A stretch of DNA of 64,000 nt from Candidatus Moraniibacteriota bacterium. GTDB taxonomy: Bacteria > Patescibacteriota > Minisyncoccia > Moranbacterales > UBA2206. Both the position numbers and the translations under genes were made by a program. The DNA is taken from the NCBI GenBank assembly GCA_026396175.1, contig JAPLXG010000006.1, positions 76,492 through 140,491 of the forward strand, read 5' to 3'. Shown in pieces: positions 10,124 through 60,036 of this stretch (the first letter of the stretch is position 1; every line of letters begins with the position of its first letter). The notes under the pieces are model-generated. The model was not told where the DNA came from. It saw only the letters and a list, made by a program, of their open reading frames with translations, and did no database searches.

Positions 10124-10142
10124 AGTTTACGAACCTGCCTGC
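10124..10142. repeat. Family C REP-like palindrome CCTGCCTGCCGGTAGGCAG (variant orientation) upstream of gpmI
   Basis: Imperfect 20-bp palindrome repeated 6x in window. Confidence 0.7.
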
Positions 10143-10413
10143 CGGTAGGCAGATAAGCACCCGAATGTCTCGAATGAGTGTGTAAGTTTTGAGTTTATCT
10201 ATTTTTTAGGTTATCTACTAATAAATGATAGCACTTTCAAAGCGTTTTGACAAAAACTGGCGGTTGTAATACCATAAGAGGGGTAGATAATTGTTTAAAC
10301 AAGTCTAGTTTATATTGATAAAGGAAAGTGATCAGGGGTGGCGCCTTGATTTTTCAAAAAGTATCTGTCGCATATTACATTTATGATTTATCAATTGAAT
10401 AGAAAAAAAACGT

Positions 10414-11946
10414 ATGGAAATGACTCTAACGGTGCTAATCACCGGTATTTTATCTTTGGGAATCGGATCGGTCTTGGGCTATTACGCCAGACAAACAATC
10501 GCTAAAAAACAACTTTCCACCGCTGAGGGAAAAGCCTTAAAAGTGGAAGAGGAGGCAGAAAAAAAATCACAGGAGATTGTCCTGGAAGCAAAAAATAAAG
10601 CGGTCAATATCTTGGAAGAAGCCAAGAAAAAAGAATTCGACAAGGAGGAACTCCTCCGTCGGACTGAGGCGCGTTTGGATAAAAAAGAGGAAAGCTTGGA
10701 AAGCAAGATTCAAGAAATTGAAAAAGAAAAAGAACTCTTGGGTCAAAAAGCTGAGGAAGTACGCACCATCAGAAAAGAAGTGGAGGAAGCAAGAAGACAG
10801 GAGCTGAAGCGACTAGAAAAAATTGCCGGTCTCTCAAAAGAAGCCGCCAAAAAAATTCTTTTGCAATTGACGGAAGAAGAGAGTCGCGATATCTTGGCCA
10901 AAAGAATCAAGGCGCTAGAAATTGAAGGGCGTGATACTTTGGAAAAGAAAGCCAAAGATATTATGACTGGCGCAATCCAAAAATATGCCGGCTCACACGC
11001 GGCGGATGTGACCACCAGTATCGTGGCGATTCCTTCAGACGAAGTGAAGGGACGGATTATCGGAAGAGAAGGTCGAAACATCAAGGCCTTGGAGCGACTC
11101 ACGGGAATTGAAATTATTGTCGATGACACGCCGGAAGCGATTGTGATTTCCGGTTTCGATCCAATCCGCAGAGAGATTGCCAGAATTGCGATTGAGCGCT
11201 TGATTTCTGATGGACGGATTCACCCGACCAAAATTGAAGAAGCGGTGGAATTTGCTAAGCTGGAGATTAATAATAAAATTCGCGAAGCCGGAGAAGCGGC
11301 GGCCTATGATGTGGGTGTAGCGGGGCTCGATCCAAAATTGGTGCATATTCTTGGACGTCTCAGGTACCGTACTAGCTACGGGCAAAATGCTCTTTTGCAT
11401 TCTTTGGAAGTGGCGCATTTGTCAGGAGCACTTGCGGCGGAACTCGGTGCTGACGTAAATCTCGCGAAAAAAGCCGGGCTACTTCATGATATTGGCAAAG
11501 CGATTGACCACGAAGTGCAGGGAACGCATGTTGAAATCGGAATTAAGATTTTGGAAAAATTCAAAATTGGCAAAGATATTATCGATGCGATGAAATCGCA
11601 TCACGAAGATTATCCATTTGAAACACCAGAATCGATGATCATCTCAGCAGCGGACGCGATTTCCGCTAGTCGTCCCGGAGCCAGAAAAGATACACTGGAA
11701 AATTATCTCAAACGCTTGGAAGAACTGGAAGCTGTGGCAACCTCTTTTCCCGAAGTGGAAAAAACCTATGCCATTCAAGCCGGAAGAGAGATTCGCGTTT
11801 TTGTGCGACCGGACAAAATTGATGATTTGGGCGCGATCAAATTGAGCCGCGCGATTGCTGACAAAATTGAAAAAGAGTTAAAATATCCCGGTGAAATCAA
11901 GGTGAATGTGATTCGAGAAACACGCGTGGTTGAGTATGCTCGTTAG
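10414..11946 (+). CDS. rny: Ribonuclease Y
   Basis: N-terminal TM helix, long coiled coil, KH domain (GRIIGREGRNIKALERLTGIEIIVDD), HD domain (LLHDIGKAIDHE...H). Confidence 0.9.
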   Translation: MEMTLTVLITGILSLGIGSVLGYYARQTIAKKQLSTAEGKALKVEEEAEKKSQEIVLEAKNKAVNILEEAKKKEFDKEELLRRTEARLDKKEESLESKIQEIEKEKELLGQKAEEVRTIRKEVEEARRQELKRLEKIAGLSKEAAKKILLQLTEEESRDILAKRIKALEIEGRDTLEKKAKDIMTGAIQKYAGSHAADVTTSIVAIPSDEVKGRIIGREGRNIKALERLTGIEIIVDDTPEAIVISGFDPIRREIARIAIERLISDGRIHPTKIEEAVEFAKLEINNKIREAGEAAAYDVGVAGLDPKLVHILGRLRYRTSYGQNALLHSLEVAHLSGALAAELGADVNLAKKAGLLHDIGKAIDHEVQGTHVEIGIKILEKFKIGKDIIDAMKSHHEDYPFETPESMIISAADAISASRPGARKDTLENYLKRLEELEAVATSFPEVEKTYAIQAGREIRVFVRPDKIDDLGAIKLSRAIADKIEKELKYPGEIKVNVIRETRVVEYAR

Positions 11947-11950
11947 ATTT

Positions 11951-12231
11951 ATCCCGCACTAACTTTGCACTTTTCTCAGTAAAATAAGTAATATGACTTA
12001 CGCGTTCACCAAAAGCAACCTTCAAAGCGCCTGGTTTGCTAGAGCTTATTACTGCTTGTATTAATCTCTAAGACTAAGTAGTTTCCTCCAGAATAGCCCT
12101 GGCTATAGATAAGCTTGCTTTTGGCAAACGCGTAAGTCCTAAAGTTATTTAGAGTAAAGGTGAAAAACAGTTGGCTTGGTGTCGCGGAAAACTATTTGGC
12201 ACTTCGTGCCAGTGCAAAGTTAGTGCGGGAA
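11951..12231. repeat. Family H element: 282-bp rod-like nested inverted repeat bounded by 19/20-bp TIRs ATCCCGCACTAACTTTGCAC / GTGCAAAGTTAGTGCGGGAA (candidate MITE or 6S-like structured RNA)
   Basis: Nested complementary pairs seen directly: 11951-11970 with 12212-12231; GACTTACGCGTT with AACGCGTAAGTC; CAAAAGCAA with TTGCTTTTG; AGCTTAT with ATAAGCT. Confidence 0.6.
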
Positions 12232-12367
12232 AATCCCATTTGCTTTATTTAAAGCAATTGTAGTAAAATAGAAAGACTAGCGGATTTGATAAGAATTAAG
12301 GTACACGCCAAAGTTTAATTTCCGAAAAATTAAAGGGCTTGGCGAACTATTGAAAGGAGGTGATAAT

Positions 12368-12652
12368 ATGGCAGGCAATATTAATAAAGATGCTTTGGTA
12401 AGCGCAATCAGCGAAAAAACTGAATTGTCCAAGAAAGACGTTGAAATGGTATTGGAAACAATGATTGAAGTTATCACTAAATCTTTGAAAAGCGGAGACA
12501 AGGTAACAATGACCGGTTTTGGAACTTTCAAGGTTTCTAACCGCGCAGCAAGAGAAGGAATCAATCCTCAAACTAAAGCTAAGATCAAAATCCCAGCAAT
12601 GACCGTTCCTAAATTTTCAGCAGGAAAGGCTCTGAAAGAAGCTGTGAGATAG
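12368..12652 (+). CDS. hup: DNA-binding protein HU (start at ATG 12368 after GGAGGTGA)
   Basis: HU signature (GFGTFKV, RAAREGINPQTKAKIKIPA); strong SD GGAGGTGA 5 nt upstream. Confidence 0.9.
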   Translation: MAGNINKDALVSAISEKTELSKKDVEMVLETMIEVITKSLKSGDKVTMTGFGTFKVSNRAAREGINPQTKAKIKIPAMTVPKFSAGKALKEAVR

Positions 12653-58551: not shown

Positions 58552-58638
58552 CATGCGAAAGCGCGCTACGAACGCGCCCATCCGAATAAAAAATTTCGTA
58601 GATTCGTATTTAATTCGTAGTTTCGAATCGGTAAATAT
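58552..58638 (+). repeat. Family B spacer unit (g)
   Basis: GCATGCGAAAGCGCGCTACGAACGCGCCCATCCGAATAAAAAATTTCGTAGATTCGTATTTAATTCGTAGTTTCGAATCGGTAAATAT. Confidence 0.75.
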
Positions 58639-59004
58639 ATGATACAAGCAGAATCAAAATTAAATGTCGCGGATAATAGTGGCGCAAAAGTCATCAAGTG
58701 CTTCAAGGTGCTTGGTGGAACAAGAAGAAGGTTTGCTCGGATCGGTGACGTTATCGTGGCAAGCGTAAAATCAGCTGAACCGCGAGGAATGGTGAAAAAA
58801 GGCGATAAGGTACGCGCTGTGATCGTGAGACAAAGAAAAGAATTTCGTCGCAAAGACGGATCATATATTCGTTTTGATGAGAATGCCGCTGTGATTGTGG
58901 AAGCGAAAGAACCGAAAGGCACACGAATTTTTGGACCGATTGCGAGAGAGATTCGTGATCGTGGTTATGCGAAAATTGCGTCGCTGGCACCAGAGGTACT
59001 ATAG
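58639..59004 (+). CDS. rplN: 50S ribosomal protein L14
   Basis: [17 protein letters not shown]...GDVIVASVK. Confidence 0.95.
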
Positions 59005-59095
59005 GCATCAGAAAGCGCGCTACGAACGCGCCCATCCGAATAAGAAATTTCGTGGATTCGTATTTAATTCGTAGTTTCGTATCGGTATAAATTAT
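59005..59095 (+). repeat. Family B spacer unit (h)
   Basis: GCATCAGAAAGCGCGCTACGAACGCGCCCATCCGAATAAGAAATTTCGTGGATTCGTATTTAATTCGTAGTTTCGTATCGGTATAAAT. Confidence 0.75.
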
Positions 59096-59401
59096 ATGAA
59101 GATTAAGAAAAACGATTTAGTTAAAATGCTCGCAGGAAAAGACAGTGGAAAAACTGGAAAGGTTTTGCGTGTTTTCCCGACTGAGAAAAAAGTGGTTGTC
59201 GATGGACTGAATATGCTGAAAAAACATAATAAACCAAAAAGAGAGGGCGAAAAAGGTCAAAGAGTGGAAATCCCAAGAATGGTTGATATTTCCAATACGA
59301 TGCTTGTTTGTCCAAAATGTGGAAAAGCGGCTCGGATCGGCTATAAGACAGAAGGCGATAAGAAAATTCGCGTGTGCAAGAAATGCAAAGCGGAAGTATA
59401 A
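59096..59401 (+). CDS. rplX: 50S ribosomal protein L24 (KOW domain) with C-terminal CxxC...CxxC zinc-ribbon extension
   Basis: KKNDLVKMLAGKDSGKTGKVLRV; C-terminal CPKCGKAARIGYKTEGDKKIRVCKKC. Confidence 0.9.
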   Translation: MKIKKNDLVKMLAGKDSGKTGKVLRVFPTEKKVVVDGLNMLKKHNKPKREGEKGQRVEIPRMVDISNTMLVCPKCGKAARIGYKTEGDKKIRVCKKCKAEV

Positions 59402-59421
59402 ATTTGGATTTAATTTTAAAG

Positions 59422-59970
59422 ATGAATATGTCAAAAATTTACGAAAAATATAAGACCGAAGTAGCAGCTGAGATGAAGAAAAGTCTCAAGCTGAAAAATG
59501 ATTTGCAAGTGCCAAAGATTGAAAAGGTAGTTGTAAACGTTGGAATCGGAAAATTTATCAAAGACTCTGCGCTCGTTGCTGATATTTTCAATTCTCTAAA
59601 AGCGATTACTGGGCAAAAACCGGTGATGACAAAAGCCAAGCAATCGATTGCCGGATTCAAAACGCGAGAAGGATTGGAAATTGGAATTAAGGTGACACTG
59701 CGTGGAAAACGAAAATGGGATTTCTTGGAAAAATTAGTCGGCGCTTCAATTCCGCGCATTAGAGACTTTCATGGAATCAAGGTTGGTGCAGTTGATAAGG
59801 GCGGAAATCTGAACCTTGGAATTAAAGAGCATTTGATTTTCCCGGAGATTCTGCCAGAACAAGTCAAAACCATTTTTGGAATGCAGGTAAATGTTGTGAC
59901 GAATGCTAAAAACCAAGAAGAAGGAATGATGCTATTTCGATTGATGGGATTTCCTATTGAAAAAAAGTAG
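59422..59970 (+). CDS. rplE: 50S ribosomal protein L5 (start at ATG 59422 or 59428)
   Basis: VPKIEKVVVNVGIG...FRGL-like region; ORF track start 59374. Confidence 0.9.
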   Translation: MNMSKIYEKYKTEVAAEMKKSLKLKNDLQVPKIEKVVVNVGIGKFIKDSALVADIFNSLKAITGQKPVMTKAKQSIAGFKTREGLEIGIKVTLRGKRKWDFLEKLVGASIPRIRDFHGIKVGAVDKGGNLNLGIKEHLIFPEILPEQVKTIFGMQVNVVTNAKNQEEGMMLFRLMGFPIEKK

Positions 59971-60036
59971 TTATTCGCTTCGCGAACCCGTACTACCTGC
60001 CTACCGGCAGGCAGGCGAAAACGGGACATACGAATG
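59971..60036 (-). repeat. Family E element in inverted orientation with family C REP (59996-60015) inserted in its hairpin loop
   Basis: Reverse complement reads ATTCGTATGTCCCGTTTTCG|REP|TAGTACGGGTTCGCGAAGCGAATAAC. Confidence 0.65.

Follow-up and report, generated by a model that had tools for sequence, protein, structure and literature searches.

The 64,000-nucleotide stretch analysed here (the window; Candidatus Moraniibacteriota bacterium, assembly GCA_026396175.1, contig JAPLXG010000006.1, positions 76,492 to 140,491 of the forward strand) contains six copies of a 20-base palindrome, CCTGCCTACCGGCAGGCAGG (hereafter the 20-mer), which is a mobile element: sites filled by it and equivalent empty sites exist as polymorphisms. 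The 20-mer occurs, as a perfect palindrome or as an A..C variant, in at least 120 loci from about ten phyla, and it is physically linked to a cassette, found in tRNA genes, that encodes a minimal GIY-YIG endonuclease; its functional link to that cassette is correlative. On balance, these observations lead us to favor the view that the 20-mer is a self-contained non-coding mobile hairpin module, resembling the small dispersed repeats (SDRs) of cyanobacteria, that is mobilized in trans by a nuclease encoded elsewhere, for which a Slx1-like GIY-YIG protein is the best candidate.

The window is a segment of bacterial chromosome with 42% G+C that carries rpoB, rpoC, fusA, tuf and the S10 and spc ribosomal-protein operons. 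Its rplB product is 96% identical to a protein from a JGI metagenome and 75-88% identical to proteins of Candidatus Moranbacteria/Moraniibacteriota, members of the candidate phyla radiation (CPR/Patescibacteria). A search allowing up to three mismatches found the 20-mer at exactly six sites, the number given in an earlier note on this DNA, versus none in 100 dinucleotide shuffles. Four of the start coordinates in that note were right, and the other two have been corrected from 10124 to 10134 and from 42633 to 42634. The first copy (10134-10153, minus strand) belongs to the A..C subfamily, has T instead of C as its first base (TCTGCCTACCGGCAGGCAGG) and lies between the divergent phosphoglycerate mutase and RNase Y genes; its flanks read CTTA^ and ^TTCGTA, so that it adjoins a complete TTCGTA and splits no hexamer. 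The copy at 21558-21577 (plus strand) interrupts a tandem array, CTCTACGAATTA^CGAATTTATACG, and the copy at 31376-31395 (plus strand) lies in the rpoB-rpoC spacer within a TACGAA array, CGAATCTA^CGAATGAATGCG; both are thus set in tandem CGAAT/TACGAA arrays, and both split TA^CGAA. The three remaining copies stand in the loops of other hairpins: at 42634-42653 in a family K hairpin (42622-42666, minus strand; GGTTCAGTATCTC^CTGACCTGAACC in the minus-strand reading, with flanks CTC^...^CTGACC), at 55626-55645 in mid-loop of a family B hairpin of the rplB-rpsS spacer (GCGCG-CTA^CGAA-CGCGC; 55618-55654, plus strand) and at 59996-60015 in a family E hairpin 3' of rplE (CCCGT-ACTA^CGAAA-ACGGG; 59987-60025, plus strand). 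Single-strand folding of these three regions places the hairpin of the element within the loop of the host hairpin, in agreement with the earlier reading. The 20-mer itself folds at -6 to -8 kcal/mol and adds about 7 kcal/mol to the host hairpins. A split TA^CGAA had been claimed for five of the six copies; the flanks show it at four (21558, 31376, 55626 and 59996). With 71 intact and 4 split TACGAA/TTCGTA sites in 10,565 intergenic bases, the probability that at least four of six copies fall in such a site is about 4e-8.

The hexamers TACGAA/TTCGTA occur 89 times in the window, 71 of them in intergenic DNA, which makes up 16% of the window. They cluster at 31412-31505, 45586-46053, 52775-52904 and 55672-61854, in arrays spaced at 7-11 bp, and similar TTCGTA arrays flank the 20-mer at loci L005, L007 and L155, which come from unrelated organisms and a viral contig.

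Insertion was examined by joining the 12 bases on either side of each copy and searching the window for the product. Three of the six sites have paralogous empty sites that match once exactly 20 bp are removed. The site reconstructed from the copy at 55626, GAAAGCGCGCTACGAACGCGCCCA, is present exactly (24/24 bases) at 56066, 57981, 58557 and 59011 and with two mismatches at 56734 and 57477; these six empty hairpin-B sites (56066-59034, plus strand) each lie within a spacer cassette of about 95 bp that has seven copies among the ribosomal-protein genes, only one of which holds the 20-mer. The copy at 21558 has an empty paralogue, CTCTACGAATTACGAATTTGTACG, at 45583-45606 (one mismatch), and the copy at 42634 has two, at 16500-16523 (minus strand, one mismatch) and 63014-63037 (plus strand, two mismatches). 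The insert is therefore exactly 20 bp, with no target duplication and a position that is ambiguous by one base, a shared C. Microhomology at the junctions amounts to this single C in the window and to 3 nt in the phage contig L158, and is not general.

Related genomes and other loci lead to the same conclusion. The 72 kb available from relatives (L122-L124, 96% related; L125 and L126, 88% related) contain no copy of the 20-mer, versus six in the 64 kb of the window, and the rplE-rpsN spacer of L122/L123 (96% by rplB identity) holds the hairpin CCCGCCAAGGCGGG at the same position without it. In L158, the 20-mer lies in the variable loop of a tRNA-Met(CAT) gene that ARAGORN reports as a 92-nt tRNA with a long extra arm; when the 20 bp are taken out, ARAGORN calls a canonical 72-nt tRNA, and in four syntenic phage contigs (L175-L178) the gene is uninterrupted. 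In L013, the 20-mer breaks a Y1-like transposase pseudogene whose frame (SRKE|WMINIF) is restored by removal of the 20 bp, and in L049 it lies within one small hairpin (GTCCC-ATA-GGGAC) of a hairpin array. Because the host repeats occur without it, the 20-mer is an insertion and not part of a longer repeat. The earlier note had claimed an independent, precise insertion without target duplication and had named, as what would speak against this, a palindrome belonging to longer ancestral units; the paralogous and orthologous empty sites bear the claim out, and the longer units do occur without the palindrome. The window copies, all six of the A..C subfamily, are recent solo insertions. The 20-mer does not combine terminal inverted repeats with a target-site duplication, as DDE-transposase-derived miniature inverted-repeat transposable elements do: exact removal of 20 bp restores the sites, and the direct repeats found in flanks lie off the junction.

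The hairpin-B cassettes, which start near 55606, 56058, 56726, 57469, 57973, 58549 and 59003 (window 55590-59110), fill seven spacers of the S10 and spc operons. Each is built of hairpin B between CATCCGAA repeats, a run of A, four TTCGTA units and, abutting the ATG, TCGGTAnAAAT, and so provides the sequence immediately 5' of each start codon. The corresponding spacers of L125 measure 3-30 bp; the cassette, too, has invaded these intergenic regions recently.

A scan of one genome per GTDB species with the query CTGCCTRCCGGYAGGCAG yielded the loci, at least 120 in number, on which the wider comparison is based. By our own count of record titles, the matches listed comprise 41 loci of Bacteroidota (including isolates of Winogradskyella, Olivibacter, Flagellimonas and Longitalea), 32 of CPR bacteria, 9 of Planctomycetota and other members of the Planctomycetes-Verrucomicrobia-Chlamydiae (PVC) group, 8 each of Omnitrophota and uncultured Gammaproteobacteria, 7 of delta-type bacteria, 3 of Nitrospirota, 2 each of Bdellovibrionales, Chloroflexi and Ignavibacteria, 1 of Stahlbacteria and 5 unclassified. 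Firmicutes, Actinobacteria, Alphaproteobacteria, Cyanobacteria and Archaea are not represented among them. The 129 copies among the matches listed divide into 80 perfect palindromes, 48 of the A..C form and 1 of the A..T form. Directly outside the 18-mer, the perfect copies have C in 79 of 79 cases and G in 78 of 79, and the sequence further out is unrelated; the copies are thus 20-bp homologues and did not match by chance. The 20-mer is present in isolate genomes and in complete chromosomes produced by many laboratories, and IMG/VR added 48 further stretches that contain it, while BLAST against cultured phages (2.3 Gb) and plasmids (7.3 Gb) found no full copy. Variants also exist, among them a 21-bp unit, CCTGCCTGCCGGTAGGCATGG, that is repeated head to tail at least nine times in a viral contig (L172, 3924-4130). 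There is no excess of copies truncated at the 5' or 3' end, and a search for a shared enzyme in multi-copy viral contigs and between paired copies recovered phage structural and ordinary genes only.

The 20-mer has a weak, directional preference for its insertion site. Among 68 oriented copies the left neighbor is A or C in 61 and never T, and the right neighbor is C in 51 and T in 14, with CG as the commonest right dinucleotide, which gives the rule (A/C)^element^(C/T). The site preference and the nesting in other repeat hairpins described in the earlier note thus hold, while TACGAA does not hold as the general target: TA^CGAA is the form that this looser rule takes in a genome with TACGAA-rich spacers. 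Self-nesting is seen in at least nine copies, and the point of entry into the apical loop of the other copy is CTAC^CGG every time. A perfect stem of at least 6 bp closes the site of 20 of 186 copies, where 3-6 are expected, so that clear hairpin loops are a real but minority context. The flanks hold inverted repeats of at least 7 bp at 17 of 121 copies (2.6 expected) and direct repeats of at least 7 bp at 24 of 121 (3-4 expected); the latter do not abut the junction and therefore indicate a tandem-repeat context rather than target duplication. Orientation is not significantly related to transcription (19:10, a mild sense-strand excess) or to GC skew (30:24). The 20-mer often enters DNA prone to become single-stranded, namely hairpin loops, short tandem repeats, the loops of tRNA genes and its own apical loop.

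Local searches with small GIY-YIG seeds gave seven true matches in 1.68 Mb of 20-mer loci, five of them within 100 bp of a 20-mer. All-versus-all clustering of the open reading frames (ORFs) in these loci recovered mostly common families, together with a cluster (L026, L054, L091, L095, L144 and L169) that corresponds to the GIY-YIG family. The genes belong to cassettes in which a partial copy of a tRNA 5' part, with the 20-mer in its D-loop, is followed by a short linker, an ORF of 77-88 codons for the GIY-YIG protein and, where readable, the intact tRNA. The 20-mer or a close variant is present in all eight cassette lineages examined; in seven of the eight it lies in the D-loop of the duplicated tRNA piece, 20-170 bp upstream of the ORF, and all seven cassettes with a readable upstream tRNA fragment carry it in the D-loop of that fragment. 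Physical linkage to a GIY-YIG gene, as in elements associated with homing endonucleases, is therefore found in eight cassettes, none of which lies in the window.

The architecture was read base by base in five cassettes. That of WWE3 (L054) runs GGGGACGTAGCTCAGTGGTAGA[20]GCAGCGGC...ORF...tRNA-Lys, where [20] stands for the 20-mer; that of Saccharibacteria (L095) has a pseudo-copy with 20-mers in both the D-loop and the anticodon loop, then the ORF and tRNA-Leu(CAA); and that of Bacteroidetes (L026) is followed by tRNA-Arg(CCG). Two are from phages. ARAGORN calls no tRNA downstream of the ORF in L169. In L144 the contig starts at the ORF, so that nothing upstream can be read, and degenerate tRNA-like sequence about 80-100 bp downstream holds the 20-mers. 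The five proteins are 42-47% identical and have in common the motif AR[KR]REKYLKSG.G[KR]E. As an independent sample, three further genes from a profile search (P0277, P0331 and P0329) were chosen solely for the number of their contigs, blind to the 20-mer; in all three, a tRNA-Leu pseudo-copy holds it or a close variant 37-170 bp upstream of the gene. P0277 reads ATGCCCGGATGGCGAA[CCTGCCTGCCGGCAGGCAGG]ATTGGTAAAC..., ORF, tRNA-Leu(CAG); P0329 reads GCCCGGGTGGCGGAA, the same 20-mer as P0277, TTGGTAGAC..., ORF, tRNA-Leu(CAA); and P0331 has a pseudo-tRNA-Leu, 170 bp upstream, with a D-loop remnant and the T-loop variant CCTGCCTGTCGGCAGACAGG. Those members of the subfamily that have a named source belong to Omnitrophota, to several CPR lineages and to several orders of Bacteroidota, the phyla richest in the 20-mer. 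The subfamily profile has its closest matches in UPF0213 (1ywl, 1zg2) and the SLX1 structure-specific endonucleases, and the subfamily corresponds to the minimal Slx1-like group described by Dunin-Horkawicz et al. (PMC1564403). In L169 (820-940), downstream of the GIY-YIG ORF, a tRNA 5' segment runs into GTGCCGAGGGCAAAGCCCGAGGCAAATG... at the position of the anticodon loop and may represent an intron-bearing tRNA.

These associations suggest how the 20-mer could move. A nuclease whose gene lies elsewhere in the genome would mobilize it in trans; the best candidate is the minimal (77-88 amino acids) Slx1/UPF0213-like GIY-YIG structure-specific endonuclease. This nuclease, or machinery travelling with it, may make breaks in DNA at loops or stem junctions, and the 20-nt hairpin may be excised and rejoined, or copied, into such breaks. 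We advance more tentatively, as a possibility somewhat short of even, that the 20-mer and the cassette form a two-part selfish system, in which the nuclease of about 80 amino acids homes into tRNA genes, rebuilds the tRNA with a copy of its 5' part and mobilizes in trans a hairpin able to enter any exposed loop. As for its place in the D-loop, the 20-mer might label the point of cleavage, might interrupt a direct repeat that would otherwise delete the cassette, or might merely be tolerated.

Several observations weigh against a role of the GIY-YIG protein. No 20-mer is near any of ten more distant viral GIY-YIG genes (32-37% identity), and neither the window nor the 72 kb from close relatives was found to contain the gene. 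L226 (1127-1250) contains an extra, tandem, full-length pseudo-tRNA-Leu(GAG), whose D-loop holds the 20-mer and whose T-arm holds a variant, beside the intact copy; the two are not separated by an ORF. Clear hairpin loops account for only about 10% of copies, and a test of hairpin loops based on minimum free energy showed no enrichment (39 versus 34 of 186), although this test is not discriminating and the perfect-stem test was used in its place. To our knowledge, GIY-YIG nucleases hydrolyse DNA and do not transpose it. The link could also be indirect, if cassette and 20-mer both favor tRNA-like structures and insertions survive only in the dispensable pseudo-copy. The closely related population L228 has the intact tRNA-Leu(GAG) gene only, and duplication of the tRNA seems to accompany invasion in L226.

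The alternative that fares best against GIY-YIG mobilization extends the argument for an indirect link: some other mobilizer, such as an RNA intermediate, host repair or a topoisomerase, would move the 20-mer, and its proximity to GIY-YIG genes would reflect a shared liking for tRNA-like structures and the tolerance of pseudo-tRNAs. We consider this unlikely. The D-, variable and T-loops of tRNA genes and the loops of terminator-like hairpins, all of which receive 20-mers, are loops of structured transcripts; the sense-strand excess, though mild, points the same way, as does the pseudo-tRNA of L226 with its 20-mers and no adjoining ORF. Elhai reportedly proposed an RNA intermediate for the SDRs. 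However, no reverse transcriptase was seen in the window, and a universal host enzyme is difficult to reconcile both with a phylum range that mirrors that of the GIY-YIG subfamily and with the lack of any full copy in 9.6 Gb of cultured phages and plasmids. Passive accumulation is hard to square with the placement in the D-loop, because all seven readable cassettes carry the 20-mer there.

Less probable still is the origin proposed in the earlier note, in which a Y1 HUH transposase encoded elsewhere peels off the single-stranded hairpin and pastes it beside a short motif without duplication, as in repetitive extragenic palindromes (REPs) and their REP-associated tyrosine transposases (RAYTs) or in IS200/IS605 elements. 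The hairpin, the polar insertion without target duplication and the single-strand-prone targets are as expected, and the A..C variant has CTAC/GTAG at its apex. Y1 genes were sought in the 20-mer loci by local phmmer and hidden Markov model searches seeded with the PDB-verified IS608 TnpA and the E. coli RAYT. They were found only in L010, L049, L075 and L013, with a fragment in L118; Y1 (PF01797) genes in four or five loci are somewhat more than expected in Bacteroidota, and in L049 the 20-mer lies 27 bp upstream of the Y1 start codon. However, that copy is an insertion in the GTCCC-ATA-GGGAC hairpin, and in 30 orthologous Y1 loci the hairpin array is present and the 20-mer absent (orthologues L179-L204 lack it). 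The Y1 genes of L010, L049 and L075 are flanked by other hairpins, and the L013 copy breaks a Y1 pseudogene. The CPR loci, the viral loci and the window have no Y1 gene, and nine viral Y1 loci have no 20-mer. The statement that the window encodes no transposase agrees with the Pfam and Y1 searches, and Pfam detected no nuclease or recombinase in its unassigned ORFs.

The structure of the 20-mer also differs from that expected of Y1-dependent repeats. Its ends are CCTG and CAGG, and it lacks the GTAG/CGTC that marks one end of a REP palindrome; the 80 perfect palindromes contain no GTAG, and in the A..C variant it is the apex, and not an end, that carries CTAC. The six window copies, like most others, stand singly and do not form the inverted doublets that make up a REPIN unit. 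Each REP is regarded as specific to a lineage, where it co-evolves with its RAYT, whereas the 20-mer is common to about ten phyla. Palindrome-associated transposable elements (PATEs), miniature elements derived from IS200/IS605, have distinct left and right end hairpins, a fixed tetra- or pentanucleotide target and an orientation set by the replication strand; the 20-mer is a single 20-nt hairpin with (A/C)^(C/T) flanks and a GC-skew orientation of 30:24. The attribution to a REP/RAYT system is therefore not supported, given a sequence common to many phyla, the lack of a GTAG end tag, the singletons, the lack of strand bias, the weak target motif and the absence of a cognate Y1 gene from the window and the loci searched. 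The 20-mer may nevertheless be moved by a mechanism that recognizes hairpins in single-stranded DNA.

That the 20-mer is not mobile at all, being a conserved cis-acting hairpin (for protein binding, RNA stability or termination), a part of ancestral repeats or an assembly artefact, is very improbable: it is GC-rich, strengthens the host hairpins and lies in spacers of highly expressed operons, but host repeats and orthologous sites lack it, it nests in itself and interrupts a tRNA gene (L158) and a coding frame (L013), none of the six window copies is followed by the T-run of an intrinsic terminator, Rfam at the gathering threshold finds two tRNAs only in the window and no family matching the 20-mer, and isolates and complete chromosomes from many laboratories contain it.

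In Chitinophagaceae (L199, 2656-4001; L200 and L201), a conserved single Y1 gene annotated as RayT follows 1.2-1.35 kb of non-coding DNA that consists of an array of small hairpins with a 74-bp period (GTGGC-agc-GCCAC, CGGAC-ttaa-GTCCG and GAGCC-gta-GGCTC). Many metagenome contigs end at this array.

Among known systems, the 20-mer most resembles the SDRs of Nostocaceae. In 2008, Elhai and colleagues are said to have described SDR1-8 as hairpin modules of this family, with SDR5 inserting between bases 3 and 4 of HIP1, and the SDRs are reportedly embedded in tandem heptamer repeats and mini-transposons. A hairpin of about 20-27 nt, precise insertion, self-nesting and embedding in short repeats are all features of the 20-mer as well. 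SDRs are 21-27 nt long, precisely inserted and nested, have no known enzyme and are reported only from Nostocaceae (PMC4390886, PMC5861425). Their sequences are probably unrelated to that of the 20-mer, which is found in about ten phyla and in phages in contrast to their restriction to one family (PMC5861425). The 20-mer differs further in its recurrent GIY-YIG protein partner and its tRNA-gene targets, and no cyanobacterium is among the matches listed.

Like REPs and REPINs with their RAYTs, including the 22-25-nt GTAG-tagged SMAG elements, the 20-mer is a short, extragenic, GC-rich, non-coding hairpin of a kind thought to be moved in trans without target duplication (PMC3116915, PMC3733652, PMC2817692). 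It differs from them in having no terminal GTAG/CGTC, doublets or lineage specificity, in that no cognate RAYT flanked by it was found, and in entering other hairpins and itself. The cassettes recall the free-standing GIY-YIG homing endonucleases of tRNA gene clusters, such as SegB of phage T4 (PMC2330249), in that a GIY-YIG gene lies among or within tRNA genes and has the behavior of a selfish cassette, and their catalytic domain is of the structure-specific Slx1/UPF0213 kind (PMC1564403). Unlike Seg and UPF0213 proteins, the cassette proteins consist of a catalytic domain of about 80 amino acids with no DNA-binding domain; neither the duplication of the tRNA 5' part nor an accompanying 20-bp palindrome that also spreads alone has been described for those proteins. 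IS1397 and ISKpn1 likewise insert in the loops of palindromic units (cited in PMC3116915). They are, however, full insertion sequences with DDE transposases and target duplications, whereas the 20-mer is a 20-bp payload without duplication. Literature searches by sequence and by concept found no description of the 20-mer, none of the papers searched contains its sequence, and it goes unmentioned where the tRNA introns of Patescibacteria were surveyed in 2026. The GC clusters and double-hairpin elements of fungal mitochondria are also tiny, mobile, GC-rich palindromic invaders of AT-richer intergenic DNA; they are organellar, and the yeast GC clusters duplicate their target, unlike the 20-mer.

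The 20-mer appears to rank among the smallest mobile DNAs known and among the most widely shared, and there is a substantial chance that its mechanism is new. Very small mobile repeats would no longer be confined to one cyanobacterial family but would reach across much of the bacterial tree, the reduced genomes of CPR lineages included, with the GIY-YIG protein as the first testable candidate enzyme for such repeats. The near-identity of 20 bp across phyla implies either frequent horizontal spread, for which copies in phages are documented, or a very conserved recognition mechanism. If the link to the nuclease is true, it would be a new way of inserting short DNA at structured sites. If the two-part system is true, a transposition-like process would be run by a hydrolytic GIY-YIG nuclease, and not by a transposase, on the smallest mobile DNA yet described, one that is common almost base for base to Bacteroidota, CPR, Omnitrophota, Planctomycetota, Nitrospirota and others and is carried by their phages. 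The 20-mer also has practical consequences for annotation: ARAGORN misses or mis-sizes tRNA genes that carry it, and it creates spurious ORFs with CLPAGRQ-like peptides and lengthens spacers in ribosomal-protein operons.

Three further features were noted in the window and the compared loci. An inverted pair of repeats, GTCATTCTGAGCGGAGCCGAAGAATC ... GATCCTTCGACTGCG...CGCTCAGGATGAC, at 42700-42860 translates into ...SLRMT-like peptides; a repeat of this kind also hosts a 20-mer in a Doudnabacteria contig (L087) and may be another small repeat that crosses phyla. Between fusA and tuf (48527-50413, plus strand) lies a lineage-specific 628-codon ORF whose product has no match in Pfam or NCBIfam; L125 has a 92-codon ORF instead, and the single metagenome homologue (78% identical) is on a short contig, L121, that contains none of the 20-mer sites. 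In L035, from Chitinophagaceae, a leucyl-tRNA synthetase frame (5725-7998, minus strand) contains an inserted DUF559/Vsr-like endonuclease domain (Pfam E 1e-34).

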